From positions 7,687-71,686 of the forward strand of contig CAMKNA010000008.1 of assembly GCA_946414075.1 (NCBI GenBank): 64,000 nucleotides of DNA, read 5' to 3'. This document shows positions 24,193 through 63,693 of the stretch, one piece after another (within the stretch, counting starts at the first letter, position 1; every line of letters starts with the position of its first letter). The translations under genes and the position numbers were made by a program. The notes under the pieces were generated by a model. That model was not told where the DNA came from, did not search any database, and saw nothing but the letters and a program-made list of their open reading frames with translations. The DNA comes from an uncultured Fibrobacter sp. (GTDB lineage Bacteria > Fibrobacterota > Fibrobacteria > Fibrobacterales > Fibrobacteraceae).

Positions 24193-24210
24193 TGTAAACT
24201 AAAGTTTACA
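24193..24210. promoter_or_regulatory. Perfect 18-bp palindrome TGTAAACT-AA-AGTTTACA, candidate operator
   Basis: Intergenic, upstream of the FISUMP array; same TGTAAA-N6-TTTACA geometry as 63676-63693. Confidence 0.6.
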
Positions 24211-24219
24211 AAATGTCTG

Positions 24220-25089
24220 CTACTTTCGGGCGGCGTGCATTTTCTGCTTGCAGTCGTACATGGAAGCGTCGGCGCTGTGGAGCATCTCGTCCATGTCCTT
24301 GTACACCTCGCCGGAGTAGGCGATGCCGTAGGCGAAGGAGACCTTCTGGTCTACAATGGTAATGTCGCCTACCGCCTGCTGCATGCGTTCTGCACAAATC
24401 AGGGCGCCCGGCCTGTCGGTGTCGGGGCAGAGCACCATGAACTCGTCGCCGCCCATGCGGAACAGCACATCGGATTCTCGGAGCAAGTCCTTGCAGGCCT
24501 TGACCACGGAGCGGAGCAGCAGGTCGCCAGCCTGGTGGCCGAACTTGTCGTTTACCGTCTTGAGCCCGTTCAGGTCAAAGTAGATTAGGGAGAAATGGGT
24601 GCCGTAGCGCTTGCTGCGGGAGAACCATTCCCGCAGGGTGTTGATGGCGTGCCTGCGGTTGTAGCTCTGGGTCAGGTCGTCGGTGAGGGAGATGTCGCGC
24701 AGGTACTTGAGGGTGCGGCAAAGCCTAATATGCACATTAATGCGGGCCAGCAGAATTTCGGTGGGAGAAAGCTTGCTTACAAAGTCCGAGGCCCCAGCAT
24801 GGAAACCCTTGGTGATGCTTTCGGGGTCTTCCCTGCTGGTAAGGAATATGATGGGCAGGTCGTCTAGGGCGTGGCCTTCGCGAATGCGCAGGCAGACTTC
24901 GTAGCCGTTCAGGCTGGGCATGTTGATGTCCAGGAGCACCAGGTCGAACTTGCCCTTTTCCAGCAGCGCCAGGGCCTCTTCGCCGGAGGTGGCGGAAACG
25001 ACGCTGTAGCCCACCTGGGTCAGGAGCTCCCGGTTCTTTTCCAGGATCTCGGTGCTGTCGTCAACGATGAGGATCTTTTCTTCTATCAT
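24220..25089 (-). CDS. Response regulator diguanylate cyclase (REC-GGDEF)
   Basis: ILIVDD..LLDINMP receiver; D.LT..YNRR, DLNGLKTVNDKFGH..GD, RMGGDEF. Confidence 0.95.
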   Translation of the reverse strand: MIEEKILIVDDSTEILEKNRELLTQVGYSVVSATSGEEALALLEKGKFDLVLLDINMPSLNGYEVCLRIREGHALDDLPIIFLTSREDPESITKGFHAGASDFVSKLSPTEILLARINVHIRLCRTLKYLRDISLTDDLTQSYNRRHAINTLREWFSRSKRYGTHFSLIYFDLNGLKTVNDKFGHQAGDLLLRSVVKACKDLLRESDVLFRMGGDEFMVLCPDTDRPGALICAERMQQAVGDITIVDQKVSFAYGIAYSGEVYKDMDEMLHSADASMYDCKQKMHAARK

Positions 25090-25098
25090 GCACTCCCC

Positions 25099-25917
25099 CT
25101 ATAGAAATTCCAGCGGTGGCGCCTTTTCGACCAGGCCCAGCTTCTCGGCGTACCCGAAAAAGGTCTCCAGGGACTTTTTTCGCTCGTCCGTAAAACGATA
25201 ATCTATAATTTTATAGTAGTCCAGTACCGTCTTTTTGTCCAGATTTGCAGGAAATCTGGAAATCCAGCGTTCCAGGGCGGTGGCGGGGTCGGCGCGGAAG
25301 GCGTTCAGGCTCTTTTCCGTTTCTTCCAGGTAGCTTTCCAGGACGGGGCGCAGCTCTGGTTTTAACGCCGACTTTTCGATAATCCAGGCCCCGAACACAA
25401 AGGGCATGCCCTGCCAGTCCTGCCAAAGGGTGCCCAGGTCGTAGCTGTAGGGGAACCGGTGCCGTTCCGTCTCTTCTAGCGCCAGGTCCCCAATTAAAAG
25501 GCAAGCGTCGTCGGAGGGGTCGGCGGCAAGCCCTTGGGCAAACTGCGTTTTGACCTGGTAGCGTTCCTGGAGAAGGATTTTCAGCAGGGCCACGGATGTC
25601 TGGCTCTGGGAGGTGAGCCGCACCGTCTTGCCGTCGAGACCTTCGATGGGGAACCTGGAAAAGAGCTTTACGGAGCGGACCTCGAAGGAGCACGATGTGC
25701 AGAATTTCGGGGAGAGGACGAAAGCCCCGGGTTTTTGGGCAAAAGTAATGGAGGATGCCGGCGACAGGTGGATAGAGCCTTCCCTAAGGCCCCTGCTGTG
25801 CTCGCTGGGCGGACCGTCTACGAAGCGTATGCGGGGGAACTCGTGCTTGCGACCTAAAAAGCCGTGAAAGAATGGCGCACAGACCAGAAAAGGAATTCGA
25901 CCCACCAATAAATCCAT
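25099..25917 (-). CDS. mqnA: Chorismate dehydratase (futalosine menaquinone pathway)
   Basis: VGRIPFL, VRSVKLFS, SQTSVALLKIL, LLIGDLAL, DLGTLW..GMPFVFGAW. Confidence 0.85.
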   Translation of the reverse strand: MDLLVGRIPFLVCAPFFHGFLGRKHEFPRIRFVDGPPSEHSRGLREGSIHLSPASSITFAQKPGAFVLSPKFCTSCSFEVRSVKLFSRFPIEGLDGKTVRLTSQSQTSVALLKILLQERYQVKTQFAQGLAADPSDDACLLIGDLALEETERHRFPYSYDLGTLWQDWQGMPFVFGAWIIEKSALKPELRPVLESYLEETEKSLNAFRADPATALERWISRFPANLDKKTVLDYYKIIDYRFTDERKKSLETFFGYAEKLGLVEKAPPLEFL

Positions 25918-25999
25918 GAAAAAAAATTAACTTTTGCCCGTGGCATTTTGTAGACCACAAAACAATAAACCGAAAATAAAAGATAATGGCTAAGGAATA

Positions 26000-26290
26000 A
26001 TGGCTGTATTTCACGTGAAAAAGACGTCCCTGGGTGAAGACAAGACCAGTCTCGTGTTCAAGGGCAAGATTATCGAAGGGCCCATCAGCAAGGGCATGAC
26101 CATGGAAATCCCGATAACCGGCGAGACTGTGATCAGGATGAAGGTTTACGATGTCGTCCAGTTCGAGAAGCAGAAGGACGAAGACAAGAAGGTGGGCCTG
26201 GTGGTGGACTTTTACAACCTGCCCGACGACCTGGAAGTGGTCCAGGACCTGAACATTGCCGACGAAGACCTGAACGTCGTGAACGACTAA
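26000..26290 (+). CDS. Small hypothetical protein (beta-rich)
   Basis: SD AAGGA and host-like codon usage; no confident family. Confidence 0.75.
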   Translation: MAVFHVKKTSLGEDKTSLVFKGKIIEGPISKGMTMEIPITGETVIRMKVYDVVQFEKQKDEDKKVGLVVDFYNLPDDLEVVQDLNIADEDLNVVND

Positions 26291-26332
26291 TTTATGCCGT
26301 CAATTCCGGCGGCTTAACCAACAGAGCAAAAG

Positions 26333-27409
26333 ATGAAAAAAGAAAGGCTACGGGGAGTGAATTTGGGTGGCTGGTTCAGTCAAGTCGACTGTATCGAAGA
26401 AAAGGATCCCGTAGGTTTTCCGGGGCTGGTGCCCCATATCAAGACATTTCTCGGGGTAGAAGATTTCAAGCGCATCCGAGGGGCGGGGTTCAACCATGTG
26501 CGCCTTCCGGTGGACTACTTCAACCTGTTCGAGACCGACGACGCCAGCAAGCCTAACGAAGAAGTGTTCGGGCTGCTGGACAAGGCGCTGGCCGAAATTC
26601 AGGCAGCGGACCTGGATGTTATCCTGGACTTGCACAAGTGTCCGGGACACGACTTCCACCTGGGGTGCTCTACGGAACAGGCTTTCTTTGCCGACCCTGT
26701 GGCCCGTAAGAAGACCTGCGACATCTGGGCCTACATGGCCGAACGCTACAGCGGTGAGTCCCGTGTGATGATGGAACTGTTGAACGAGCCTGCCGGTAGC
26801 GACTCTGGGGTTTGGGACAAAGTAAAAGACGAGATTTTCTGGGCTATCCGCAAGCACGCTCCCAAGAACACCATTGTGGTTGGCAGCAACAAGTGGAATA
26901 GTGCCAGTGAATTCAAATTCCTGACTCCCATGGACGACGACAACGCCATCTACAGTTTCCACACCTATACACCGGTGACATTCACTCATCAGGGCGCGGC
27001 TTGGATCAGCGATCCCTTCTTCAAGATTGAGCGGCCCTGGCCGGGTGACTACGCGGCTCCCCAGGGGGATGCCGAAACCCGCCTGAATGTGGAATACGGC
27101 CTGTGGGACAAGGCCCGCTTGCAGGCGAGCATCCAGAACGCCTTGGATTTCCGCGCCAAGTACGACTTGCCCGTGGCGTGCAACGAGTTTGGCGTGTATG
27201 TGCAGGTGCCCCGTCAGTACCAGCTGGCTTGGATGCGGGACTTCTTGGAGATCCTCCGGGAAGCGGATGTGGGCTACAGCTACTGGAACTACAAGAACCT
27301 GGATTTCGGTCTGGTGTCCAAGGGTGAGTCGCTGCATGACGGACTTGCGCAGTACAACAATCCTGAACGGCTCGATACAGAGCTGATGGACATGCTTGCC
27401 CGCGGGTAA
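26333..27409 (+). CDS. GH5 glycoside hydrolase, cellodextrinase-like, no signal peptide
   Basis: GVNLGGW, GFNHVRLP, LDLH, ELLNEP (acid/base), FHTY, NEFG (nucleophile), YWNY. Confidence 0.93.
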   Translation: MKKERLRGVNLGGWFSQVDCIEEKDPVGFPGLVPHIKTFLGVEDFKRIRGAGFNHVRLPVDYFNLFETDDASKPNEEVFGLLDKALAEIQAADLDVILDLHKCPGHDFHLGCSTEQAFFADPVARKKTCDIWAYMAERYSGESRVMMELLNEPAGSDSGVWDKVKDEIFWAIRKHAPKNTIVVGSNKWNSASEFKFLTPMDDDNAIYSFHTYTPVTFTHQGAAWISDPFFKIERPWPGDYAAPQGDAETRLNVEYGLWDKARLQASIQNALDFRAKYDLPVACNEFGVYVQVPRQYQLAWMRDFLEILREADVGYSYWNYKNLDFGLVSKGESLHDGLAQYNNPERLDTELMDMLARG

Positions 27410-27415
27410 GCGCAA

Positions 27416-27874
27416 CTAGATTTCTACAAGGATTCCGGCCTGGATGTAGGCATAGCCTTTGCCTACATGATCCAGGAACTGGTAGCCGCCCATGACCAGG
27501 ATAGAGGAATAATCTCCATTCTTGATATCAAGCCCGCCGCCAGTTCGCCAGAAAAACTGGTGGTCGCTTCCGATAAGGTAACCAAGGTCTCCCGTGGCCA
27601 CGGGCAAAATCTGGCTCCCGATGGGGAGACGCACCCAGAGGCTTGCGCTGACGGGAACCAGGCCCACATTGTCGATTTCCTGGTAGCCGCTGCCGATGCC
27701 GACGAACAGCATCTGGTCGATGGGGTACCACAGGTGGCCATAGATGTTCAGGTTGAACTTGGAAAGCTCGCTGACATGGTTGACGACGCCGGCCTGTACA
27801 TCCATGGTAAAGGCGTCCGCCGGTATGACGGTGAATGCTAGGGCAAACAGGATGGCGGTCAGGATGCGTTTCAT
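27416..27874 (-). CDS. Exported protein, probable small outer-membrane beta-barrel
   Basis: Signal peptide, alternating aromatic/Gly strands. Confidence 0.7.
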   Translation of the reverse strand: MKRILTAILFALAFTVIPADAFTMDVQAGVVNHVSELSKFNLNIYGHLWYPIDQMLFVGIGSGYQEIDNVGLVPVSASLWVRLPIGSQILPVATGDLGYLIGSDHQFFWRTGGGLDIKNGDYSSILVMGGYQFLDHVGKGYAYIQAGILVEI

Positions 27875-27928
27875 ATTGTTGTAGTTAAATGTAGTTTAAA
27901 ATAAGGATAGAGATTTTCACACTGCTTT

Positions 27929-29080
27929 TTACTCGTCGCTTCTCGCTTCCCTTGCCCAGCCACCGGATTTTTCACGGCAGAAGGAAAGGAAGAAGCCCTT
28001 GAGCATGGCCATGTTCATGGTCAAGAAATAGTAGGCACCTGGAATCACTTTGAAAAGTCCAATCAGCAAGAAGGCAAGCAGTATGCCAAGGGAAACCCGG
28101 TAGGCGCTATAATGCCAGGCCAGGGGAATGTTCACCAGGAACAGCAAGACAAATATGTGGGGCGAGAACCAGCGCAGAATCTTGTGTGAAAAGAACAGGT
28201 AGCTGCGCAGGGGCCTGAAGGGGTTCAGGAGCGGTAGGTAGGAAAGCAGGTAGTTGAAGTTGGCACGCCCGATACGGACCTTGCGCCTGTATTCGCCGGT
28301 GGTCTCCTTGGACGTCTGCTCGGTGCCGATGGCGCTGGAAATGAAGGTGCTGTAGTAGCCCTTCTGCAGAATTTTCGTGGTGACGAAGAAGTCGTCCATG
28401 ACGCTTTTCTTGGTAGGCAGGTCGGTGTAGAGTTCCCTGCGGATGGCGTACAGGGCTCCGTTTCCGCCGATGAGCAGGTCCATCATGCCTTCGAACTTCT
28501 TGATTTCGGATTCCAGGTCCCAGTAGGCGCTTTCGCCACGGCCCAGTTCGGAGCCGCTCTTGTCGGTGAGAATCAGGTGTCCGCAGGCGCAACCGTTCTT
28601 CTTGTCGCTAAATGGGTCGATAAGCTTACGGATGACATTGGGAAAAAGGATGGTGTTGGCGTCGCAGAAAAGGAGAATTTCTCCGGTGGCATGCTTGTGC
28701 AGCCGGTTCAGCATGGCCGCCTTGCCCGCATTTTGGGGTGCCCTGACGAGGGTGATGCCCTGGTTGCTGTAACGCTCCACAATTTCGGCGGTCTTGTCCT
28801 GCGAGCCGTCGTCGCCAATAAGGATTTCCAGCTTGTCTTTGGGGTAGTCCAGTTCCAGGAGATTCTGGATTTTGCGCTCGATGACGGCTTCTTCGTTGTA
28901 AGCCGAAATAAGGATGGAGACTTTGGGCAGCTCGCCGCCATTGTCAACCCTGTTTCCCTTACGCTTGAATATTTCGCTTACGAAGGGCAAGGTGATGGGG
29001 AACAGCACATAGCAGTGGAAAAGCAGGAACAGCAGTACCCAGTAGGCGACTTGCAAATAGAGAAAAGTCTGCTCGTTCAT
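27929..29080 (-). CDS. Glycosyltransferase family 2 (membrane-anchored)
   Basis: SAYNEE, DDGSQD, CDAN, GALYAIRR, DDF, RRKVRI. Confidence 0.92.
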   Translation of the reverse strand: MNEQTFLYLQVAYWVLLFLLFHCYVLFPITLPFVSEIFKRKGNRVDNGGELPKVSILISAYNEEAVIERKIQNLLELDYPKDKLEILIGDDGSQDKTAEIVERYSNQGITLVRAPQNAGKAAMLNRLHKHATGEILLFCDANTILFPNVIRKLIDPFSDKKNGCACGHLILTDKSGSELGRGESAYWDLESEIKKFEGMMDLLIGGNGALYAIRRELYTDLPTKKSVMDDFFVTTKILQKGYYSTFISSAIGTEQTSKETTGEYRRKVRIGRANFNYLLSYLPLLNPFRPLRSYLFFSHKILRWFSPHIFVLLFLVNIPLAWHYSAYRVSLGILLAFLLIGLFKVIPGAYYFLTMNMAMLKGFFLSFCREKSGGWAREARSDE

Positions 29081-29538
29081 CGTTCAACCCATTCTTTTTC
29101 TTTTTCCAGGAACTTGTCCAGTAGCATCAGCATTTCCTGGGGCGACATGGAATCCGTCACGGTCAATATAGAAAGCCCCTTGGGTGCTATTAGGACAAAT
29201 GATGGGAGTACATTCAGTTCCCATATATCGGAAAAGCACTTCTTGGTGGTTTCCTTTTTTCCATCGCAGACGATAGGGGCTTCGGAATCCACATCCAGTT
29301 TTACGGGATAGAATTTCTTGTTTAGGGTAGACGCCACCGATGGGTTCATGTATACATTCTTGTCCATGACACGGCAGGGGACGCACCAGTCGGCGTACAT
29401 GTCCACAAAGATGAGTCTGGGCTCTGTCTTTGCCTTTTCCAGGGCGGTAGAGTAATCCATCCATTGGACCAGGGATTGGGCGGTGGCGCCAAACAGAAGT
29501 GTTGCCGAGAATAGCAGGCTGGCCAGGAGTCGGAACAT
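29077..29538 (-). CDS. Exported thioredoxin-fold protein
   Basis: Signal peptide, YADWCVPC. Confidence 0.88.
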   Translation of the reverse strand: MFRLLASLLFSATLLFGATAQSLVQWMDYSTALEKAKTEPRLIFVDMYADWCVPCRVMDKNVYMNPSVASTLNKKFYPVKLDVDSEAPIVCDGKKETTKKCFSDIWELNVLPSFVLIAPKGLSILTVTDSMSPQEMLMLLDKFLEKEKEWVER

Positions 29539-29541
29539 GGG

Positions 29542-29898
29542 CTACTCCTCCCTGTGCCTATGCCTGGGTTCGGCGTTGGCCTTGCTGGTCTCGATTAGGG
29601 TGTCCAGACGCGCGATGACTGCCTTTTGAAAAGGGACCCACATGTCCCTATCGTCGAGAATGGCGTTTGCCTTCTTGAGAAAGCGTTCCCTGTTGTAGCC
29701 GGCGCTGTCCAGGATGGCCTTCCGGTGGAGTCGGGCCTTGGGAGAGTCGCTACCGTACATCTGTTCCACAATCAGCAGTTCTGTGTAGGTGTTCACGAAC
29801 TTCTGGTCTACGGTGGGTTCCTTTTTTTCACAACCCGCCTGCAGGCATGCCAGTGCCGCCAGTGCCAAAATCCAGAAGGTGCGCTTGATGGTGGACAT
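29542..29898 (-). CDS. Small lipoprotein (possibly DUF4296-like)
   Basis: Lipobox QAGC; position within the operon. Confidence 0.7.
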   Translation of the reverse strand: MSTIKRTFWILALAALACLQAGCEKKEPTVDQKFVNTYTELLIVEQMYGSDSPKARLHRKAILDSAGYNRERFLKKANAILDDRDMWVPFQKAVIARLDTLIETSKANAEPRHRHREE

Positions 29899-29904
29899 GG
29901 TTGC

Positions 29905-30828
29905 CTATGGAGTTTCTTCTTCCAGGGCGTTTTCAAAAAGGCCCTCTACATATTCGGCCTTGCTGAATGGTACCAACTGGTCGATGCGCTCGCCCATGCC
30001 GATCCAGCGGATGGGAATCTGTAGTGAACTGGCAATGGAAAGGACCGCGCCGCCACGGGCCGTACCGTCGAGCTTGGTGACCACCAGGCCGGTAAGGGGG
30101 AAGCTCTGGTTGAAAATCTTTGTCTGGTTGATGGTGTTTTGGCCGGTGTTGCCATCGATAACGAGCCACATGTCGTGGGGCATCTCGGGGCTTACCTTCT
30201 TGATGACGCGGACTATCTTCTTGAGTTCTTCCATCAGGTAGTCCTTGTTGTGCAGGCGCCCGGCGGTATCGATGAGCACCACATCGCAGCCCCGGGCCAC
30301 GGCCGCATTGCAGGCGTCGAACGCCACCGCTGCCGGGTCGGAACCTTCCTGGTGCTTAACGAATTCGGCTCCGCTACGCTGGGCCCAGGTTTCAAGCTGG
30401 TCGATGGCTGCGGCACGGAAGGTGTCGCATGCGGCGATCATCACCTTCTTGCCTTCGTCTTTTAGGCGGGCGGCCAACTTGCCGATGGTGGTCGTCTTTC
30501 CGGCACCGTTTACGCCGATGACCAACACTACATGGGGCTTGCCCTTAAGTTCAAAAGGCGGCGGATCTTTCAGGAGCCGTTCCGCTTCGCTCCGCATTAT
30601 GTCGAGCACTTGTTCGGTGGTAAGCGACTTGCCCAGGGCCTGTTCGCGGAGGGCGTCCGTCAAAAGGAACGCGGCTTCCACGCCCACATCGGCTTTGATG
30701 AGATGCTCTTCTAGCTCTTCCAGGGTTTCGTCAGTGATCTTCCCGGCGCCTACGATTCCCTTGAGCTCGCCCACCAGGGCGTCGCGGGTTTTGGCAAGGC
30801 CGCTCTTGATGGCAGAAAAAAATCCCAT
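29905..30828 (-). CDS. ftsY: SRP receptor FtsY (no acidic A-domain)
   Basis: [37 protein letters not shown]. Confidence 0.97.
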
Positions 30829-31409
30829 TATACCAGGCTCTCGACCTTGTCGACCAGGCCGTACGCCTTGGCCTCTTCGGCGCTCATGAAGTTGTCTCGT
30901 TCCGTGTCCTTGTCGATTTCTTCTTGGGTGTGTCCCGTGGTTTCGGCAAGGATCTTGCCAGTGATGTTCCTGATCCGGAGCATTTCTTCGGCCTGAATCT
31001 GGATATCGCTTGCGGGGGCCACGATTTCGCCGTGGATGAGCGGCTGGTGTATCATGATGCGGGCGTTGGGCCAGGCTACTCGTTTGCCCTTGGTTCCAGA
31101 AGTCAGGAGGACCGCACCCATGGAGGCGGCCTGTCCGCAGCAGACGGTCACCACATCACTTTTGATGGCATTCATGGCGTCGTAGATGGCAAGACCGCTG
31201 GAAATGACTCCACCCGGGCTGTTGATGAAAAAGATGATGTCTTCGTGGTTCAGGGAATCCAGGTACAGAAGCTCTTTCACGATGCGTTCGGCGCTTTCGT
31301 CATCGACGCCTCCCCACAGGAAAATGCGGCGTTTGGAAGTCAGGTATTCTTCCGCCTTCTTTAAAAAATCCGGGGTCGCTTGTTCCTTTTTGTCTTTACA
31401 TTCGGCCAT
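30828..31409 (-). CDS. clpP: ATP-dependent Clp protease proteolytic subunit
   Basis: [37 protein letters not shown] coupling to ftsY. Confidence 0.96.
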
Positions 31410-31479
31410 AAGAGATTCCTTTGTATTTACGGGGATAATTTAGAAAAAAAGCGTACTGCATTTTTGCTATCTTTGAGCC

Positions 31480-32793: not shown

Positions 32794-32804
32794 GGCGCCG
32801 CCCC

Positions 32805-32920: not shown

Positions 32921-32924
32921 CTCG

Positions 32925-36045: not shown

Positions 36046-37416
36046 ATGAAAAAGAGCTTAACACTCATGCTTGCCGCGACATCCGCATTTTTCTTTGCCT
36101 GCGGCGATGATGGCAGTTCGGACAACGGAACCGGTAGCGGCAGCGTTACTGTCGAGGAGTCTGGAACTATCATTGTTGATACCCTGAAAAAGACCACTAT
36201 CGTTGTAACGGAGGAGTCCGAAGATGCGTGCGTCAACGAGGGCGCCGGTGTCTACACATGGAAAACTGTGGATATGGGCCTGGATTCTAGTTTTTCGAAG
36301 TATGAATTCGTAGGTGACACCCTGGTGATGTACGATTGCGATTATATGGATGGGGAGGGCGATCTTGGGGGATGCGAGAATGCCGGCCAGATGATGGTTG
36401 GAGGCGATGCTCCCAAGCTGGACGGTACTTGGAAAGCGATTTTCTGCATGTATGATTCCGAAGAATCCGAAACACACTGTTTCAAACGCTGTGAGGATAT
36501 TCCTGGAGGTAGGCTCACCGAGAAAGAAGCCGCGGCTTTGAATCCCCAGGAACTGGACTCGAGCCTGATAGATCGCATGAATTGCCTTACCCAAATGGAA
36601 CTAACCCAGTATGGTCTCGACGAGGAAACGGTCAAGATTTCGGGCAACTCGATTTCGGCCAAGGTAACCCTTTATTATGATGATGAAGAATTCGATGATT
36701 ACATGAATTCCATGTTTATGACCAGTTTATACAGGAGTCTGACAAATGGCAGGGCGGTGATTCCCAGCCCAGACCTCCTGACCGTAGAGGATTCTTCTGG
36801 TGTGGCAGAGTATCTCAGTTTGTCCAACATAGAAGTGACAAAACAGAACAAGAACAGCGTCACTTTTAAGATTGCGGATCAAACGGTCTCGGTGAGTGTC
36901 GATGAATACAATCTCTCTGAAAGATTTGAATTTGCCATGACCATTTCCGTAAATGGGAAAAGCTGTGCGCTGCAGGAAGAAGAAGGCGAAGTGTCCAAGC
37001 GCGAATGCAATGTGGAATACGAGAAATTTTTAGAAATGAGCCCGTATAAGGATGCTTCCGGCAATGAGTTTGTTATTGCCTATGAATACGAAAAGTCCAA
37101 TGAAGATGAATTCGAAGAATGTTCTGAAGCATTGATGGATTCCTTGTACGCATCCATCATGAAAAATGAAGGTGGCTCTATGGGTGACGATAATTGTGGG
37201 AACATTATCCAGGAATATTATGTTTGCACTGCGGCAGGATCGATATCCAACTGCAATTATTCTGGCTATCAGGAATGTTTGGCGGCCTTAACCGATGAGA
37301 ACGAAATGGTGTCGTCTTTCCCGAAAAAGGCAGTGTCTTCTCGTGAACAGGCCAAGAAGAAATTTCTCAAGGTTTCTCGTAAGTTCGCGCGCATGATAAA
37401 GAAACTCGCCGAATAA
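36046..37416 (+). CDS. Acidic Cys-rich lipoprotein of unknown function with basic C-terminal tail
   Basis: Lipobox FFAC-GDD; SD AAGGAG. Confidence 0.85.
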   Translation: MKKSLTLMLAATSAFFFACGDDGSSDNGTGSGSVTVEESGTIIVDTLKKTTIVVTEESEDACVNEGAGVYTWKTVDMGLDSSFSKYEFVGDTLVMYDCDYMDGEGDLGGCENAGQMMVGGDAPKLDGTWKAIFCMYDSEESETHCFKRCEDIPGGRLTEKEAAALNPQELDSSLIDRMNCLTQMELTQYGLDEETVKISGNSISAKVTLYYDDEEFDDYMNSMFMTSLYRSLTNGRAVIPSPDLLTVEDSSGVAEYLSLSNIEVTKQNKNSVTFKIADQTVSVSVDEYNLSERFEFAMTISVNGKSCALQEEEGEVSKRECNVEYEKFLEMSPYKDASGNEFVIAYEYEKSNEDEFEECSEALMDSLYASIMKNEGGSMGDDNCGNIIQEYYVCTAAGSISNCNYSGYQECLAALTDENEMVSSFPKKAVSSREQAKKKFLKVSRKFARMIKKLAE

Positions 37417-53908: not shown

Positions 53909-54859
53909 CTAACTCGCAATCTTCACCCGACCCTTTTGCAGTTGGTAGCATAGGCTCCCGCGGCTGATCCCCAGCTTCCGCGCTGCCTTGCACTTGTTGC
54001 CCTTGCATTGCAGCAGCGTTTCTTCGATGTCGGTGAGCGTAGGCTTTTTCTTCCGCTTTCTCAAGAAATCCGTCACATATATGGAGCAGATGTTCTTTTC
54101 GTAAAGTTTGGGCACTGAAAATTCCTGGGTCAGGATTTCGGTGAGCGATACATCGTAGGGCTTCAGCACGGAATACCGCTGCAATATGTTTTTCAGCTGG
54201 CGCACATTTCCGGGCCAGGGACAGGCCTTCAGCAGGTCCATCTCTTCGGCGGAAAGTTCGCGCTGTTGGTTGCCTGGATCGCGTCTGTCGAGACGAGCCG
54301 TCGATAGGCTCCGCGCTTCCCGCCACAAATCAGCAGCCACGACATCGAAGTCCCGCCTTGCCCGCAGGGGTGGAATCTCGATGGGGAACACATTGATACG
54401 GAAGAACAGGTCCGCACGGAAATTCCCGTCGGCGATTTCTGTTTTCAGGTTCCGGTTGGTGGCGCATATCAGCCGGAAGTTCACGGGAATGCTCTGGGCC
54501 GCTCCCACGGGAGTCACCGCCTTCTCCTGCAAAATCCGGAGCAGCTTGCTTTGGGTCTCCAGCGGGAGCTCGCCGATCTCGTCTAGGAACAGGGTGCCCC
54601 CTTCCGCAGAGCGGACAAGCCCCAGCTTCTCGTCAACCGCTCCGGTGAACGCCCCCTTGAGCGACCCTTCCAGGATACTTTCGGCAAGACTCTTCGGTAT
54701 GGAGCTGCAGTTCAGCGCCACAAAGGGTTGGTCCTTCCGCAGGCCATGATTGTGGATGAACCGAGCCGCCACCTCCTTGCCGGCGCCGGATTCCCCCTGC
54801 AGTAGCACGGGAATGTTCGAAAGGGATGCGATTTCTAGCATTTTCTGTTGGTCTTTCAT
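53909..54859 (-). CDS. Sigma54-interaction (AAA+) / Fis-HTH transcriptional regulator with no N-terminal sensor domain
   Basis: GESGAGKE, GAFTGA, LFLDEIGE, ATNRNL, FRADLFFR, WPGNVRQL, GNKCKAARKLGISR. Confidence 0.93.
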   Translation of the reverse strand: MKDQQKMLEIASLSNIPVLLQGESGAGKEVAARFIHNHGLRKDQPFVALNCSSIPKSLAESILEGSLKGAFTGAVDEKLGLVRSAEGGTLFLDEIGELPLETQSKLLRILQEKAVTPVGAAQSIPVNFRLICATNRNLKTEIADGNFRADLFFRINVFPIEIPPLRARRDFDVVAADLWREARSLSTARLDRRDPGNQQRELSAEEMDLLKACPWPGNVRQLKNILQRYSVLKPYDVSLTEILTQEFSVPKLYEKNICSIYVTDFLRKRKKKPTLTDIEETLLQCKGNKCKAARKLGISRGSLCYQLQKGRVKIAS

Positions 54860-54985
54860 GATGCCTCCGACGTAATAGACGGGGAAAAGGACCGTTTTTT
54901 GAACCTTCCCGTTGATTTTTTACATAATTGTTCTCTTTTTTACAATTTGCAAACGACTGTTGCCTCCTTTTTCTATATTTGCGCC

Positions 54986-56443: not shown

Positions 56444-56453
56444 CGCCTGCGGC

Positions 56454-56486
56454 GTCATCCTGAGCGGCGAAGCCGCGAAGGATCCA
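56454..56486 (+). repeat. REP-like element (CGTC class)
   Basis: GTCATCCTGAGCGGCGAAGCCGCGAAGGATCCA. Confidence 0.75.
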
Positions 56487-56498
56487 GACCCAAATATT

Positions 56499-56547
56499 GA
56501 AAAACGGCCCGGTCACCCTGAAATTTGTTCAGGGTCCGGGTCGTTTT
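56499..56547. terminator. Bidirectional terminator with a REP-like hairpin (56512-56536) in its loop
   Basis: AAAACGGCCCG-[GTCACCCTGAAATTTGTTCAGGGTC]-CGGGTCGTTTT. Confidence 0.7.
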
Positions 56548-56595
56548 GTTTCTTAGAGAGGAACTTTTCCAAAAGATTTATCCTATACCGAACCC

Positions 56596-58068
56596 TTAGT
56601 GTGTCACGACAATCCGTCGAGTGGCATCGCCCTGGACCTTCAGGAAGTAGCTTCCGCCGGCAACTGCTTCCAGGGATACCGTTTCGCCCCTGGAGGCGCG
56701 CCCCGCCATCACCTTCTTGCCCTTCAGGTCAAAGACTCCGTAGGCCAGGTTGTCGCCTTCCACAACCGTGAAGCTCAGGTTCTTGTCACCCATGGCGATC
56801 TTTACGACCTTCGCGAATGCAGGCGCCTGCTTCCCTGCGGCTTCGAAGCTTGCCGGAGCAGCAGATTTCTGGAGAGCCACCACCGGTTCCTGCTTGCCGT
56901 AGGTCCCGGTCGCGAGCTTGTACAAGAAATCAAAAGCCTTGTCCTGCACACTGTCGGCAAACACGATCTCGCTGCCGTCTTCTGCGGTACGGGTGCTGTT
57001 GTAGAACTCGTGCTTGAGACCGTAACCCACCGGGTTGTAGAATTCGTGGGCCACGCCCCTTGCCGTCAGGGCAGAATCAATGGCGTAGCTTCCATAAATG
57101 GTGGGGGTCTCGATTTGGAACTTGAAGGCCTTTGCAAAGGCGCTGTACTTTTCGGGCACCGCTTCGGCAACCATCTTGTCCGGCTTGGATATGGCGTGTC
57201 CCACGTTGTAGGGCATCACGTAGTCGGAGTCGCCGTGGGCGAGGAACACCGGGACATCGCTGTTCTTCACGAGATCAATGTCGTGGATGCCGCCCCAGAG
57301 GGCCACCACGCCGTCGGCAGTGCCCCTATAGTCCCTTGCGCCATACTGATTCAGTTTGCCATAGGGAACATTTTCCTTCTTGTTGTCTTTCACAACAAAC
57401 TGCGGTTCGGAATCGATGTAAGAGGGGAAATCCCTTTTGCTCAGGGCATAGATGTTTTCAAGGGCCATCATGGCGCCTGCGCTGTTGCCCAGCACATAAA
57501 TCTTTTTGGGGCTGATTCTCAGCGCCTTTGCGTTCAGCCTCAGGTAACGGATGGCTGCATGCAGGTCCTGCACGCTCCTATAGACCGTGCGGGCGAAACT
57601 TGCGCTGTCGATGCGGAACGGATTGCCGCTGCCCGTCATGACCACGCCCTTGCGGTATTCCAGGGAGGCCGTCACAAAGCCGCGGGCGGCGAGGGAATCC
57701 GCGTAGGCAACGGATTTCTGGTCAAAGTCGTCCTTGGACGAGGCCACGAAAGCCCCGCCGTGGCAAATCACCACCGCGGCCCTGTCTGTACCGTTGTCGT
57801 TCACAGGTTCGTAGATATCCATCACGACAGGCTCCATCACCACCTGTTCCGACTCGTAGAGGTGCAGCATGTTCTTTTCCATCTTGAAACTCACCATCAA
57901 TTCGGAGAGGATATTGTAGTTGCTCTTGTCCATGGTCGGAACGTCGTAGGCGACGGTCACGGTCCTTGCGTTGCTGACTTCAAACATACGGTCTTTGTAA
58001 CGCACGCCGTCGGCGGCAAAGACACTAGTGATTCCCATGAGTGCTGCTATAATGATTTGGGTCTTCAT
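56596..58068 (-). CDS. Secreted carboxylesterase/lipase (alpha/beta hydrolase) with T9SS-CTD-like C-terminus
   Basis: HGGAF, GNSAG, HGDSD, KHEF; tail VFDLKGKKV..GSYFLKV. Start MKTQII with SD GAGG. Confidence 0.88.
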   Translation of the reverse strand: MKTQIIIAALMGITSVFAADGVRYKDRMFEVSNARTVTVAYDVPTMDKSNYNILSELMVSFKMEKNMLHLYESEQVVMEPVVMDIYEPVNDNGTDRAAVVICHGGAFVASSKDDFDQKSVAYADSLAARGFVTASLEYRKGVVMTGSGNPFRIDSASFARTVYRSVQDLHAAIRYLRLNAKALRISPKKIYVLGNSAGAMMALENIYALSKRDFPSYIDSEPQFVVKDNKKENVPYGKLNQYGARDYRGTADGVVALWGGIHDIDLVKNSDVPVFLAHGDSDYVMPYNVGHAISKPDKMVAEAVPEKYSAFAKAFKFQIETPTIYGSYAIDSALTARGVAHEFYNPVGYGLKHEFYNSTRTAEDGSEIVFADSVQDKAFDFLYKLATGTYGKQEPVVALQKSAAPASFEAAGKQAPAFAKVVKIAMGDKNLSFTVVEGDNLAYGVFDLKGKKVMAGRASRGETVSLEAVAGGSYFLKVQGDATRRIVVTH

Positions 58069-58179
58069 GATGTTATCCTCTCTTTTTAATTCTTTTATAC
58101 CCATAATATATTTTCAGAAATTCATATTGTCCAATATATTATTTCTTGGTTTTTAATCAATAAATTTGATTAAATGGGC

Positions 58180-58425
58180 CTAGAATTTGTCCCTGGGTGT
58201 TCTGATGGTCTCCTTTGGGGGACGCAGGCTAGTTTTCGGGCTTCTTGTTTTGTGTACCGTTTGCATAAGAAACTCGCATTGGACTGAGGGCTTCTTTTGA
58301 TAGTTTTGCATCGCTACGCATTCTTGTAATTGACGCTGAAGAATTGCATCTGGAGCTATAGGCGAACCACCTGCAAAAGCGAATGTTGCAGCGAACATGG
58401 CGGCGATAACGATAAACTTTTTCAT
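58180..58425 (-). CDS. Small secreted protein
   Basis: Signal peptide MKKFIVIAAMFAATFAFA; SD AAGGAG; two Cys. Confidence 0.7.
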   Translation of the reverse strand: MKKFIVIAAMFAATFAFAGGSPIAPDAILQRQLQECVAMQNYQKKPSVQCEFLMQTVHKTRSPKTSLRPPKETIRTPRDKF

Positions 58426-58570
58426 GATAAACTCCTTTGTTAAGTTTTCTTGTTCTTTACTCCCATAATATACCTTTGAAAATTCATAAAGTAAAATGCA
58501 TAATTTTAATCAAAACAATAGAAACGTTTGATTGATTGGGAATTGCGGTTCTGTTGCTCTCGCCTTGTGC

Positions 58571-58606
58571 GTCATTGCGAGGGTTCGCAGAACCCGTGGC
58601 AATCTC
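58571..58606 (+). repeat. REP-like element (CGTC class)
   Basis: GTCATTGCGAGGGTTCGCAGAACCCGTGGCAATCTC. Confidence 0.7.
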
Positions 58607-58688
58607 TGACCTTCTTTTGTCCCCCTAGACTTGACAAGTCTTTTTAGAATAACGACATTTGTATATGTGCAAAAAAAAGGAGAAGTTT

Positions 58689-58967
58689 ATGGAAATGAAG
58701 TTTTGCCAAAGTTGTGGCATGCCGCTTTCGCCAGAAGTCTTGGGCACCAACGCCGACGGTAGCAAGAACGAAGAATACTGCATCTACTGCTACAAAGACG
58801 GAGCGTTCACCAGTAACTGCACAATGGACGAGATGATTGAATTCTGCTCCAAGTTCGTGGACGAGTTCAACAAGAACACGGGCAAGAGCCTCTCCCGCGA
58901 AGAATACGAGGCAGAACTTCGCAAGTACTTCCCGACTCTCAAGCGTTGGAAATCAAACAACATTTAA
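58689..58967 (+). CDS. Putative zinc-ribbon domain protein
   Basis: FCQSCGMP, GTNADGS.NEEYC.YCY.DG.F, FPTLKRW; SD AGGAG. Confidence 0.88.
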   Translation: MEMKFCQSCGMPLSPEVLGTNADGSKNEEYCIYCYKDGAFTSNCTMDEMIEFCSKFVDEFNKNTGKSLSREEYEAELRKYFPTLKRWKSNNI

Positions 58968-58972
58968 ACGCC

Positions 58973-59551
58973 ATGCGTTTCGCCCTGTTTTTCGCTCTTC
59001 TTCTCGCAGCTCTTTCTTTCATGGCTTGCGGCCAGTCTTTTACCGACCCCCGTGACGGCCAGGCATATAAGATTGTGCAACTCGGTAATGTGACCTGGTT
59101 TGCTCAAAACCTGAATTACGAAATCGATGGTAGCGTTTGCCCAGAGGGTGACAGCCGCAACTGTGATAGATATGGTCGGCTCTACACCTGGGAGGTTGCG
59201 CAAAACGTTTGCCCCGAGGGTTGGATGCTCCCTGACAGCCTGGACCTTGCAAAGCTTGTGGAACAGGCGGGTGGTGAGTCTCAGGCTGGCGATGCCCTCA
59301 AGGCTAAGGATGGTTGGTTCAAGAAGGGGAATGGCTCCGATGCGTTCGGTTTTAAGGCGCTTCCAGCTGGCTTTCGCAATGTAGAAGGCGCTTACGATGG
59401 TATTGGGGGTTATGCCTATTTCTGGAGTGCGGCAGTCTCGTCGGACGATCTTGCCTACTACCTGTTTCTGGATTTTTCTAGTAAATCCGCAGGCATGAAC
59501 GCTTTTGGCAAGGGGGATTTCCGTTCTGTCCGGTGCATCCAAAAGCCGTAA
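58973..59551 (+). CDS. Single-domain FISUMP lipoprotein
   Basis: Lipobox FMAC; FTDPRDGQAY, WFAQNLNY, YGRLYTW, CPEGW, FKALPAG, SVRCI. Confidence 0.9.
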   Translation: MRFALFFALLLAALSFMACGQSFTDPRDGQAYKIVQLGNVTWFAQNLNYEIDGSVCPEGDSRNCDRYGRLYTWEVAQNVCPEGWMLPDSLDLAKLVEQAGGESQAGDALKAKDGWFKKGNGSDAFGFKALPAGFRNVEGAYDGIGGYAYFWSAAVSSDDLAYYLFLDFSSKSAGMNAFGKGDFRSVRCIQKP

Positions 59552-59571
59552 AGGGCTATATTTACCCTACC

Positions 59572-60426
59572 ATGATCCACACCTTTTTTGCGCGGCTCTT
59601 CTCCTATGTTCTCTTTGGGGCGTTGCTCCTGTTGAACTGGAAGCGTTCTACGGTTCGTGCAAATTACGAGGTGGCCCGCAGGTGGAATCCGTCTGCGATA
59701 AAAGAAGACTTTCCGATTTTCTATGAACGGCTGCTGTGCAATCTAGCACGACATGCGGGGGAGTTGCTTTTTTGCTTCCCCCTGTTCAAGAGGCTCCCTC
59801 GGGAGCTGGGTGCCTACCCGTACAACCTTGGGGGAATTCGTTTTGAGATTGCTCCTGAAAGTCAGTCAGTCCTTCAGGAAATGCGTCAGGGCGGAATCTT
59901 TTTGACGGCACATTACGGGAACTACGAGGCCATGGGCCCCTGGCTCTGCTGTCTTGGTATACCCCTTGCCGCAAGCTATATTCCCGTGAAGCCTGCCTTC
60001 TTGAATGGCATCTTGGAAAACAAGATTCGCGCCGTAGGCGGAAAGACCTATTCTGTCAATGCCAAGTCCCCTAGGGAATTTTTGCGCCTGTTACAAAACG
60101 GCAGGCTTTTCTGCCTGCTTGCCGACCAGGATAGCCGCATTCCAAGTGCCGAGTCCGGTACATTTCTAGGGGCGCCGGCACACATAAATCCCTTGCCAGA
60201 CTTTTTGCTGAAACACCGTCCCGAGACACCAGTTTTTATCTGCTGGATAGAAGAACCTAATTCGAAGGTAAAGCGTTTCCATGCCGAAAGGCTGAATATG
60301 GGGGAGGATCATAGCGCGTTCAACCGCTGGCTAGAAGGCCGTATCGCCGAGAGTCCATCCCTATGGTACGGCTTCACCCATCGCCGTTTTTTCAGCACCA
60401 CGCCCGAAATTTACAAACCGCAATAA
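59572..60426 (+). CDS. Lipid A late acyltransferase-like (LpxL family) protein
   Basis: TAHYGNYE, LLADQD, FLG, WYGFTHRRF. Confidence 0.8.
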   Translation: MIHTFFARLFSYVLFGALLLLNWKRSTVRANYEVARRWNPSAIKEDFPIFYERLLCNLARHAGELLFCFPLFKRLPRELGAYPYNLGGIRFEIAPESQSVLQEMRQGGIFLTAHYGNYEAMGPWLCCLGIPLAASYIPVKPAFLNGILENKIRAVGGKTYSVNAKSPREFLRLLQNGRLFCLLADQDSRIPSAESGTFLGAPAHINPLPDFLLKHRPETPVFICWIEEPNSKVKRFHAERLNMGEDHSAFNRWLEGRIAESPSLWYGFTHRRFFSTTPEIYKPQ

Positions 60427-60467
60427 AAAATCAAACCCGCAACTTTCTATTTTATAGTCACTAACCC

Positions 60468-62057
60468 ATGAACAAAGCCGCCATCATCGTCGCCGCATCC
60501 ATGCTCCTGAGCCGTGTCCTCGGGATTTTCCGCGAGATGCTTCTGGCCCATGCGGCGGGCGTGTCCCTCGAAAAGAACGCTCTTGACTTGGCGTTCATGA
60601 TTCCGGACATCTTGAACCATGTGGTGAGTACCGGTTTTCTGTCCATTATCTTCATCCCGATTTTTACGGGCTACAAGGTGGCCGGCGACGAGCGGGGAGG
60701 CTGGAAGTTCTTCAGCAACGTGCTGAATACCTTCGGTATCGCCCTGCTCATTTTGGTCGTTCCCGCCTTCATCTGGATGAAGGAGCTTCTGCAGCTTTTA
60801 ACCGTGGATGGCGCCACGCCGGAACTTATCGAGCGCGCCACTTACTATGGTCGTATCATTCTGCCCGGCCAGGTGTTCATCTTCGTGGGGAGTATCCTTG
60901 TGGCGGTGCAGCACACCCGCAAGCAGTTCCTGATTCCCTCCTTGACTGGCCTTATCTACAATGTGGCCATCGTGGGCGGGGGTGCGGCAGGAATCGCGCT
61001 CGGTAAGTACACCGGCACGGATTTCGGTCTGGAAGGTTTCGCCTGGGGCGTGCCGGTGGGCGCCTTTATCGGATTTTTCGCCCTGCAGATTTACGGCGCC
61101 CGGCGTGGCGGCGTGCACTATGAGCTCTTGGTCCAGCCCACCCATCCCGATATCGTACGCTACTTCAAGATGATGCTTCCCATGTCCCTTGGCGTAGGCT
61201 CCATGTTCGGTTTGGAATTTATCATCCGTAGTTTCGGTGCGAACTTCGGTACAGGTGGTATCTCCAGCCTCAACTACGCCTACCGTGTCATGTACACGCT
61301 GGTGGCGGTCTTCGGGTTCTCCGTCAGTGTCACGAGCTACCCCGACATGGCCCGCCTGGTCAAGGAAGGCGACATCGTAAGCCTGAACCAGAAAATCTGG
61401 AAGAGCCTTTCCCGCATGTTCTGCATCTTGATCCCGGCGGTAGTCGCCGTGTGGGCCCTCAGTTTCCCTGCGGTGCGTATCCTCTTTGAGCGTGGCGCCT
61501 TCCATCGCGAAACTACCGAAGCCATTGCCGAGATCCTCCGCTGGTACTTACCCGTGAGTCTTGGCCTTTGCCTGCAGGCTGTTTTGGTACGCAGCTTCTA
61601 TGCCTGCGAGCGCATGTGGGTGCCTACGCTTCTCAATACCGGCATCTTTGCCGCCACCATTCCCGCCTATATTGTTCTCGGCTCTCCCGAGATGGGTCTT
61701 GGCATCAAGAGCGTTCCCATTGTGGGTGCTACGGGGGCCATCCTCCAGGTCCTTGCCATGATTGTGATGTGGGCTAAGAAGAACGGAACCGACGGCATGA
61801 GGGAGGCTCTTCTCAACATGCTTCGCGCCCTGGTTGCCTTTGGAATCATGATTGGGGCTGCCATTGGTCTTGACCATGTTTCTGGCGATTTCGTTCGCAA
61901 CACGGGTTTCATTGTTCTTCTCGTCTACAGCTTCGCTGCTGGAGCATTGCTATTCGTGCTTACCTTGATTATCCAGCGCTACCTGGGTAGCAAGGATGCC
62001 AAGGACATTCTGAACGAGCTTCTGGGCAAGGTGCTGCGCAAGTTGCATCTGGCGTAA
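60468..62057 (+). CDS. murJ: Lipid II flippase MurJ/MviN
   Basis: LSRVLGIFRE, AFMIPD, FIPIF, YAYR, LFERGAF; many TM helices. Confidence 0.9.
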   Translation: MNKAAIIVAASMLLSRVLGIFREMLLAHAAGVSLEKNALDLAFMIPDILNHVVSTGFLSIIFIPIFTGYKVAGDERGGWKFFSNVLNTFGIALLILVVPAFIWMKELLQLLTVDGATPELIERATYYGRIILPGQVFIFVGSILVAVQHTRKQFLIPSLTGLIYNVAIVGGGAAGIALGKYTGTDFGLEGFAWGVPVGAFIGFFALQIYGARRGGVHYELLVQPTHPDIVRYFKMMLPMSLGVGSMFGLEFIIRSFGANFGTGGISSLNYAYRVMYTLVAVFGFSVSVTSYPDMARLVKEGDIVSLNQKIWKSLSRMFCILIPAVVAVWALSFPAVRILFERGAFHRETTEAIAEILRWYLPVSLGLCLQAVLVRSFYACERMWVPTLLNTGIFAATIPAYIVLGSPEMGLGIKSVPIVGATGAILQVLAMIVMWAKKNGTDGMREALLNMLRALVAFGIMIGAAIGLDHVSGDFVRNTGFIVLLVYSFAAGALLFVLTLIIQRYLGSKDAKDILNELLGKVLRKLHLA

Positions 62058-62088
62058 GTCTAGCTGGTCAAAATTTTTCACCGCATAA

Positions 62089-62130
62089 AATAAAAGCCCG
62101 AAACATCTGTTTCGGGCATCTGCTTTTATT
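62089..62130. terminator. Hairpin/terminator between convergent murJ and GH45
   Basis: GCCCGAAACA-TC-TGTTTCGGGC nested within AATAAAAGC..GCTTTTATT. Confidence 0.7.
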
Positions 62131-62137
62131 CGTGAGA

Positions 62138-63556
62138 TTAGAAGTTCTGGTAGTTGGGTGCGTCTGCAAGATTTGGACTGGTGTTGAGCGTAGAGGTGAA
62201 CTTGTCCACCAGGTATTGTGGGCATTCCACCTGCTTGAACAGGGTGACGGGATTGTTGGCGGTTTCGAACCAGTTCACAAACCACATGCATCCTTTGTAC
62301 AGGGTCGTGTTCCTGCTGCCAAATACGCTCTCGCATTGCTGCGTAACGCATTCCTTGAACTTGGTGACAGGGGCGTCTGCGCCAAGTCTGTTTTCGCATG
62401 TCGTGTAGAAGCCTCCCATCTGTTCGCCCAGGTCGGATTTGTTTACGCCAAGCTGCGTGCTCAAGGCGTCATATGCTCCTACACCGCCGCCGGGAATCAT
62501 GATATCGAACTGGCCGCCCGTCACATCGTGACCCACATTGGAAGACATGATGATAAGGGTTTTTCTTGCTATCAGCCCGTGTGCTTCCTTCGTTCCGTAT
62601 TTTCCTTCACCGGTGAACTGAATTTGGTAGCACTTGCCACAGGTTGTCTTTTCGTCTACGCCAGGAGCTGCGCCGAAGGCGTATGCCAGCGTGTCGTTTA
62701 CGGCTACGGGAATCATGTCTATGCAGGTATAGGCAAAGCCGCCGTTGTCACAGGCGCTAACGGTTCCCTTGAGCCAGGTGCCGTCTTCGCTCTTGGTGAA
62801 TGCGGGGATTTCTTCGCCATTGATGTTGCAGTTCCTGGCAATTCGGTAGGGGTTGGCGTTGGGATTTACCTTTTCCGGCCAGGAGCAGTGGGGCTTGCAA
62901 GCGTCCCAATAGCGTGTGGCGAATCCCTTAGTGACACCCTGGTCGTTCTCGGTTAGTTTTCCATAGCTTGCAATCGGATAACCGCTGGCATCCACTACTT
63001 CTTCCTCTTTCGACGAAGACGAAGGCGCCGGGCTAGAACCGTTGCTCGAAGAGGAATTGTTACCATCGTTGTTCCCTTGGTTGGAATTTTCGCCGTTGTT
63101 GCTGTTGCTACTGTTGCCGTCAGGGGAGGGCTGTTCGTGGCTATTGCTGCTTGTGTTTTCTGTGGGGTTTTCTTCCGGCTCGTCCTGCGGCTCCTCCTTG
63201 GCGGCTTCCTTCGCTTGCTGTACCATTTCGGGAGTGAGCAGGGTCAAGTCATTCAAGCTTATGTCGCTGATTGTGGAGCCGTTGTCCATGACGATGGTTC
63301 CCTCAGCCAGATCAAAGGTGCCGATGTCGTTTCCGTTCTGGTCCGTGACTCTCCCGTCCTTGTAGATGAGGATGTTTGATTCCCCCTGTAGCCAGTAGCA
63401 GCTATCCGTAACGGTAAAGTCCGCTATCTCGGGAAACTCGACGCATGCGCTGCCGACGCATGAACTTACGCTGTTTGTCTCGGAACTGCAGTTCCAAAAG
63501 AAGGTGGCGCATGCTGCAATGAGGAGTGCGCCGATAGCAATTTTCTTCATAATCAT
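62138..63556 (-). CDS. GH45 endoglucanase lipoprotein with Ser/Asn-rich linker
   Basis: Lipobox-like FWNC; TRYWDACKPHCSW, CGKCYQIQFTG, QFDIMIPGGGVG. Start is 63556 or 63550. Confidence 0.94.
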   Translation of the reverse strand: MIMKKIAIGALLIAACATFFWNCSSETNSVSSCVGSACVEFPEIADFTVTDSCYWLQGESNILIYKDGRVTDQNGNDIGTFDLAEGTIVMDNGSTISDISLNDLTLLTPEMVQQAKEAAKEEPQDEPEENPTENTSSNSHEQPSPDGNSSNSNNGENSNQGNNDGNNSSSSNGSSPAPSSSSKEEEVVDASGYPIASYGKLTENDQGVTKGFATRYWDACKPHCSWPEKVNPNANPYRIARNCNINGEEIPAFTKSEDGTWLKGTVSACDNGGFAYTCIDMIPVAVNDTLAYAFGAAPGVDEKTTCGKCYQIQFTGEGKYGTKEAHGLIARKTLIIMSSNVGHDVTGGQFDIMIPGGGVGAYDALSTQLGVNKSDLGEQMGGFYTTCENRLGADAPVTKFKECVTQQCESVFGSRNTTLYKGCMWFVNWFETANNPVTLFKQVECPQYLVDKFTSTLNTSPNLADAPNYQNF

Positions 63557-63675
63557 TTCCTATAACGGCCCCATCCCCAATACAAGATAGTTATGTTGGA
63601 CTTTTTTGGGGAGTACCAAAAATGAAAAAAGAATTTTAAACCCCGACGAATGTAAACTTTGTAAAATTTTTAGTT

Positions 63676-63693
63676 TGTAAAAATCTTTTTACA
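63676..63693. promoter_or_regulatory. Perfect 18-bp palindrome TGTAAAAA-TC-TTTTTACA, candidate operator
   Basis: Upstream of GH45; extra TGTAAA half-sites at 63651 and 63660. Confidence 0.6.

Follow-up and report, generated by a model that had tools for sequence, protein, structure and literature searches.

A conserved TGTAAA-N6-TTTACA motif upstream of surface-lipoprotein, cellulase and core genes in Fibrobacterales

Two sites in a Fibrobacter genome segment

The window analysed in this study is a stretch of 64,000 nucleotides (G000:C8:7687-71686) of G000, a Fibrobacter metagenome-assembled genome (MAG) of 2.31 Mb and 82% completeness, whose identity was indicated by its Fib_succ_major genes and by synteny with a complete 3,843,004-bp relative, G096. 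We take this relative to be F. succinogenes S85, and the gene order of its tuf/GH45 region matches Fisuc_1424/1425. The window carries two copies of the palindrome TGTAAA-N6-TTTACA. Site 1 lies upstream of three tandem lipoprotein genes (FISUMP), and site 2 lies in the divergent region between a GH45 cellulase lipoprotein gene and the tuf-S10 operon (Table 1), the tuf gene itself starting at 64063, beyond the window. Our results indicate that TGTAAA-N6-TTTACA is a conserved and enriched operator-like motif of Fibrobacterales, with the spacer fixed at 6 in Fibrobacter. Both 18-mers were found to be intergenic and of the 8-2-8 form, as the initial annotation had described; contrary to that description, self-complementarity does not extend to the two bases in the centre, and orthologues do not conserve the inner complementarity. 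It had missed the REC-GGDEF stop beside site 1 and the tuf-S10 operon on the other side of site 2. Gene calls, signal-peptide classes and the Fisuc mapping were obtained by our own heuristics and neighbour order.

The site-1 box was found in six of the seven orthologous loci in which FISUMP follows the GGDEF gene, and in none of the 23 loci with another gene in that place (best score 6.0). As the box recurs only where FISUMP follows GGDEF, site 1 is part of the FISUMP promoter, not of the GGDEF end, and travels with the FISUMP gene. The intergenic sequence is not alignable between species, and the box lies 96-132 bp upstream of the CTACATT element across the FISUMP loci. The seventh FISUMP locus has a CRP-like box in place of the site-1 box. 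The putative FISUMP -10 hexamer lies one base away from its position in the initial annotation.

The N6 dyad of site 2 was retained in all 30 orthologous GH45/tuf regions, perfect in 26 and with one change in 4. In these regions, the dyad and the two half-sites upstream of it form a conserved island while the spacer bases and flanks change, the half-sites following a period of 9-11 bp and then of 14-16 bp to the dyad. Besides these two, the half-site reported at 5491 was also present, but it has no scoring partner (none among the window matches of at least 7). The distance from site 2 to the GH45 -10 is 92-127 bp (start to start) and that to the tuf -10 is 259-281 bp across loci. As neither distance is fixed and both neighbours are constant, the sequence does not tell whether GH45 or tuf is the target. 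RNA contigs of one study covered parts of the GH45 open reading frame and not the GH45/tuf intergenic region. Toward tuf, every orthologous site-2 locus (L002-L030) has one to three DnaA-like boxes, and in many species a perfect DnaA box stands 69 bp before the tuf -10 element; these conserved boxes could mean that DnaA controls tuf or that the locus is datA-like.

Table 1. Positions in the window of the two sites, related motifs, promoter elements and genes
Feature	Position	Strand	Remarks
Three tandem Fib_succ_major (PF09603) lipoprotein genes	18475..24006	-	22117-24006, 20233-22104, 18475-20229
Putative FISUMP -10 hexamer TACATT	24073..24078	-	CTACATT kept in 7/7 FISUMP loci; putative function
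Site 1, perfect TGTAAA-N6-TTTACA, 8-2-8	24193..24210		Intergenic; centre 195 bp upstream of first FISUMP start
REC-GGDEF gene	24220..25089	-	Stop 10 bp before site 1; site does not travel with this gene
Weaker N6 site, 10.7 bits	35888..35905		Upstream of lipoprotein gene at 36046
GH45 cellulase lipoprotein gene	62138..63556	-	Positional counterpart of S85 Fisuc_1425
Putative GH45 -10 hexamer TATCTT	63584..63589	-	Present in most orthologous loci
Weak two-mismatch copy	63623..63640		Centre 53 bp from site 2; closest relatives only; role uncertain
Two tandem half-sites	63651..63665	+	63651-56, 63660-65; both kept in 30/30 loci while flanks diverge
Site 2, perfect TGTAAA-N6-TTTACA, 8-2-8	63676..63693		Divergent GH45/tuf region; extends to 10-2-10 (63674-63695)
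DnaA-like box, one mismatch	63751..63759	+	Between site 2 and tuf promoter
Putative sigma70 promoter of tuf-S10 (TTGCAA, 16 bp, TAAATT)	63926..63953	+	Highly conserved

Enrichment, spacer and spread of the motif

The perfect TGTAAA-N6-TTTACA occurs at 4 sites in G000, whereas spacers N0-5 and N7-11 gave none; hexamer counts predict about 0.12 for each spacer. In intergenic DNA of the promoter type, the shorter GTAAA-N6-TTTAC was observed 9 times where 0.58 would be expected; the uncorrected p of 1e-8 rises to about 3e-4 when 22,500 tests are allowed for. A site matrix trained on G000 gave 13 non-coding matches of at least 14 bits at N6 and 0-6 at other spacers in that genome, which is partly circular. 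S85 was not in the training set, and in about 2.0 of its 3.84 Mb, the part covered by our motif analysis, the same matrix found 10 matches of at least 16 bits at N6 and 0-4 at eleven other spacers. TGTAAA is also the most over-represented hexamer in G000 promoter DNA after the -10-like (TATA) words, and it is about three times rarer between convergent genes. Strong sites number roughly 15-25 per 2 Mb, predicted -10/-35 elements are rarely overlapped by motif sites, and the half-site bases are fixed while the spacer bases vary across orthologues. Direct repeats of GTAAA with a period of 9-11 are modestly enriched in both G000 and S85.

Across 116 genomes of Fibrobacterales, 260 perfect sites were counted, and the reversed control gave 51. 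Within the order, only genus g9 departs from this pattern (1 perfect site, 5 in the control), and two families outside it (32 genomes) had 7 sites against 11 in the control, the one that was checked being GC-richer. In family f4 a spacer of 7 is commoner than 6. As kin are not independent, these counts describe the spread of the motif and are no test of it.

A second strong palindrome, TCCA-N3-TGGA, was observed 24 times in G000 intergenic DNA against 2.5 expected, with the longer form TATTCC-N5-GGAATA; it is either a repeat element or the site of another regulator.

Genes next to the sites and their expression

The neighbours of the G000 sites include many lipoprotein genes, genes for an OmpA protein and a PL11 lyase, a second FISUMP and an ExbB/TolQ-like gene. 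Further neighbours are alaS and serC, both identified from their sequence, as well as hpf and a sodium-dependent transporter. In S85 the sites precede the GH9 gene Fisuc_0393, the fibro-slime gene Fisuc_1474, the xylanase gene Fisuc_0754, the licheninase gene Fisuc_1043, pgk and pflB, and in the genome G021 many sites precede lipoprotein-like genes. About half of the site neighbours are housekeeping genes. The initial annotation had proposed a regulon linking surface lipoproteins and a cellulase; the motif does link the FISUMP and GH45 promoters, but the scope is not so narrow. Lipoprotein promoters carry an N6 site more often than others in G000 (8/91 vs 10/579, p 0.001), a bias that was seen at N6 only and that remained when the promoters were stratified by AT content and length (p 0.0006). 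In S85 the bias was weaker (5/87 vs 10/656) and not significant after stratification (p 0.16).

In the published RNA-seq data of S85 (PMC6204037), whose rlog values are not length-normalised, the 22 mapped site neighbours had a median rlog of 10.5 against 7.8 for 38 consecutive background genes, a comparison that left out five sites, used a small background that was not promoter-matched and is affected by gene length. High values were found for GH9 Fisuc_0393 (12.1), fibro-slime Fisuc_1474 (13.3) and the lipoprotein genes Fisuc_0741 (12.3) and Fisuc_0767 (12.2), and pgk and pflB also belong to the mapped neighbours. The high expression of site-bearing S85 genes is suggestive only. The cellulose-induced cluster 11 holds one of the 22 mapped neighbours (Fisuc_1425), and the constitutive cluster 1 is the largest group. 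The regulon is broader than lipoproteins and a cellulase and is lipoprotein-biased; in the S85 data its genes are highly expressed and mostly not switched by cellulose.

The binding protein and mode of action

With moderate confidence we favour the reading that the motif family represents the sites of a global dimeric transcription factor of Fibrobacterales, which acts from upstream as an activator. From the enrichment, the fixed spacer, the conserved footprint, the placement in promoter-bearing intergenic DNA, the co-travel with FISUMP and the lipoprotein bias that were observed, we infer protein binding, the identity of the binder and the direction of control. A protein dimer, probably with a Fis-type helix-turn-helix (HTH), would read the TGTAAA half-sites across the AT-rich spacer, and at site 2 it may spread onto the neighbouring half-sites. 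The site lies some 90-130 bp before the -10, a long and variable distance that points to an enhancer-like site. From there the protein would stimulate strong promoters of the sigma70 type, which serve genes for exported and envelope proteins (FISUMP, OmpA, fibro-slime, GH9, GH45) as well as some core genes. The regulator would set the level of expression rather than act as a cellulose switch.

The best single guess for the binder is a protein of the NtrC superfamily. Among the six families covered by our regulator survey, we tentatively regard the C7 protein (G000:C7:19352-20794; S85 Fisuc_0397), a single-copy REC-AAA+-Fis-HTH protein, as the most likely one. Its HTH is of the Fis/NtrC/ZraR type and has diverged furthest in genus g9, which shows no enrichment of the motif; the protein is present in 96 of 97 genomes, and its S85 counterpart has an rlog of 10.8. 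The GH9 cellulase genes Fisuc_0393/0394 carry two of the sites, and Fisuc_0395-0397 follow directly behind them. The sigma54 loop of the C7 protein reads GSYTGS in place of GAFTGA. NtrC-family regulators that act with sigma70 and lack GAFTGA have a precedent in Caulobacter NtrC (bioRxiv 10.1101/2023.06.06.543975), to which the C7 protein is similar in the REC-AAA+-Fis-HTH architecture, the altered loop and, if the motif is its site, a few dozen sites genome-wide. Unlike in Caulobacter, the loop is substituted (GSYTGS or GAYTGA) and not deleted, and sigma54 activity of the C7 protein is thus possible. The C7 protein would act in a TyrR-like way at sigma70 promoters without being TyrR.

Several observations weigh against this interpretation. 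The presence of the C7 protein in nearly all genomes is not discriminating, a 51% identical homologue occurs in a family without the motif, and no motif site was found before the operon of the C7 protein in G000. The tandem half-sites with a period of 9-11 fit an OmpR-type protein better. Activation would rest on position and expression, for which the limits of the rlog comparison count. The weaker lipoprotein bias in S85 and the ambiguous target of site 2 also speak against the reading. The association with sigma54 was weak (4/16), in AT-richer regions where control spacers were raised as well. Unlike a classical sigma54 enhancer, none of the 26 top G000 sites had a -24/-12 sigma54 promoter within 320 bp. 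On the supporting side, weak copies of the motif stand 83-106 bp upstream of some sigma54 promoters, including a grpE half-site kept in flipped orientation, and in G021 one perfect N7 site precedes a sigma54 promoter.

Other features were noted in these genomes. Sigma54 promoters of the -24/-12 type precede clpB, dnaK, grpE, groES, htpG-like genes and one sigma factor gene (recognised by sequence; G000 C3:83720, C58:827, C58:3369, C29:27826 and the S85 counterparts), which suggests a sigma54-driven chaperone regulon. Several sigma54 promoters (G000 C34:239, C50:3679, C59:2617; G096 near 879,987) have paired TGATTAATCA palindromes upstream, which are probably the enhancer of another AAA+ regulator. 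Two everted TTACA-N4-TGTAA repeats lie at G000:C18:3505-3685, with a NifA-like regulator on one side and a glutamine synthetase gene on the other.

Other candidates were judged unlikely or rejected. The AAA+/HTH_8 protein of the window (53909..54859, minus strand), which the initial annotation put forward as the first to test, lacks an N-terminal domain; close matches to its HTH region were limited to 3 of 72 other genomes, and expression of the probable S85 counterpart is very low (rlog 3.6). Upstream of its gene (54860-54960), the minus strand has two TGTAAA half-sites spaced 20 bp apart. The NifA-like GAF-AAA+-HTH protein at G000:C27:28730-30259 has a C-terminal region highly conserved in Fibrobacter and GALVGV in its GAFTGA loop, and probably acts without sigma54; it had no orthologue with this query in G039, G052, G140, G141, G144, G146, G019, G021 and G024, all of them genomes with 3-11 perfect sites, and was present in G143 and G145, which hold none. 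The CRP-family protein (G000:C6:8659-9369) has a recognition helix of canonical type, for which a separate TGTGA-N6 motif is the better match. CRP-like TGTGA-N6 boxes occur in the same promoters of some species, upstream of GH45 in L016-L025 and of FISUMP in L046. A second DnaA paralogue was dismissed, as the candidate oriC has boxes of the canonical type and no such dyad.

It is possible, at a lower probability than the activator reading as a whole, that the binder is another core DNA-binding protein (an enhancer-binding protein (EBP), XRE, LysR, GntR, LytTR, nucleoid-associated or unannotated protein), which may be architectural or a repressor. The survey of six families leaves room for it, and the flexible spacing (N5-7; half-site periods of 9-11 and 14-16) suggests a flexible binder, but it has no positive candidate, and the rare overlap with predicted -10/-35 elements argues against steric repression.

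Somewhat less probable is the OmpR-family response regulator at G000:C12:12075-12803 (S85 Fisuc_1320), a CpxR/WalR-like envelope regulator that would bind GTAAA direct repeats and, less usually, inverted pairs. CpxR binds GTAAA-N5-GTAAA and WalR binds TGTWAH-N5-TGTWAH, and the GTAAA/TGTAA half-site, the repeats of about 10 bp and the envelope targets are shared with our motif. The enriched GTAAA repeats of period 9-11 are conserved at site 2, OmpR regulators occur in 60 of 60 genomes, the targets lean to envelope proteins, and Fisuc_1320 has an rlog of 11.8, slightly higher on cellulose. Against this, the half-site period is 9-11 where OmpR-family repeats have 10-11 bp, the dominant and strongest arrangement is the inverted N6 pair, far upstream, and an inverted pair is unusual for the OmpR family; OmpR regulators are also found in genomes without the motif, and no clear site precedes either the C7 or the OmpR operon. 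The evidence does not firmly separate the C7 protein from this regulator.

A switch responsive to cellulose and dedicated to cellulases and adhesion lipoproteins is improbable. Fisuc_1425/1426 belong to the cellulose-induced cluster 11, and sites precede the GH9, fibro-slime, xylanase, licheninase and PL11 lyase genes named above, but the single neighbour in that cluster, the predominance of cluster 1 and the many core genes argue against it.

It is very improbable that the sites arose by chance in AT-rich DNA, form a terminator or an RNA hairpin, or belong to oriC. Intergenic DNA is AT-rich and the hairpins fold with z of -1.9 to -2.8, but chance is refuted by the spacer-specific enrichment that replicates in the second genome. 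A U-tract is lacking, 23 loci with the same GGDEF stop have no site 1 behind it, and a hairpin does not fit fixed half-sites with a variable spacer. Back-to-back -35 elements were also rejected, as no -10 lies at 16-18 bp from either site. DnaA-like boxes adjoin site 2, but the cumulative GC-skew minimum of S85 is at about 2,202 kb and the site at 2,184.6 kb, i.e. 17 kb off; in G000 the sign of the skew is unchanged left of site 2. The skew minimum falls in a separate AT-rich intergenic region with several degenerate DnaA boxes (G096:C1:2,201,100-2,201,500; L175:1100-1500), which is a candidate S85 oriC, and the dnaA genes (1.2 kb, 447.7 kb) lie far from it and nearer the terminus (about 224 kb).

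A true TyrR regulon is hardly conceivable: the consensus is identical to the TyrR box, TGTAAA-N6-TTTACA with G and C 14 bp apart (PMC4374768), as the initial annotation had recognised, but neither a TyrR protein nor aromatic targets were found. Six G000 AAA+ regulators scored 180-274 bits against the TyrR equivalog cut-off of 576 (NF008085) in this 82% complete MAG, and G000 proteins were below the cut-off for HTH_50; the scan with the TyrR model covered G000, and the S85 EBPs that were compared match these six regulators best. No aromatic amino acid gene was recognised among about 50 site neighbours except one sodium-dependent transporter and, in S85 only, tyrS. Class I DAHP synthase (PF00793) was not found in G000 and not searched in S85, and class II (PF01474) was found in neither; later shikimate-pathway genes are present in S85.

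The comparison with TyrR may extend to a strong site with weaker neighbours, the weak copy near site 2 being confined to close relatives and the neighbours conserved there being half-sites; TyrR-like action at sigma70-type promoters would be a further likeness. Unlike TyrR, the targets here are envelope, carbohydrate-active enzyme and core genes, isolated tandem half-sites are conserved, and many f4 sites have a spacer of 7. The crevar element of CcpA, TGTAAA-Yx-TTTACA with a spacer of 0-40 nt (PMC5263246), shares the hexamer pair, global carbon-related targets and an N7 example, whereas our spacer is held at 6 (or 6-7) with N6-specific enrichment, and a LacI-family HTH was found in 2 of 18 genomes of the genus and not in G000. 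The motif thus has the TyrR-box sequence and a probable TyrR-like mode, but it belongs to neither the TyrR nor the CcpA-crevar regulon. The GacA box, TGTAAG-N6-CTTACA, has the same geometry and differs by one base per half, and no GerE/LuxR HTH was found in G000 (82% complete).

In F. succinogenes the regulation of cellulase genes has been named as unanswered, and the regulators were expected to lie at other places in the genome (PMC3079729). In the literature we found the motif nowhere described for Fibrobacter, the text searched being without most subscription journals. It is an unlikely but far-reaching idea that one two-component AAA+ regulator (Fisuc_0395-0397) acts as master activator of the surface and cellulose-attack apparatus of Fibrobacter. 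It would link this apparatus with tuf-S10, by way of the divergent site that both share, and with some sigma54 promoters, and would have converged on the TyrR/crevar DNA code. An order-wide site before GH45, GH9, fibro-slime, OmpA and FISUMP genes offers a bait for pull-down and comes with two named candidate proteins. For annotation it calls for caution, as genomes in which neither TyrR nor CcpA is found can still make use of the TyrR consensus. The motif gives a handle on the control of surface-protein genes and some cellulase genes in the cellulose-digesting Fibrobacterales.

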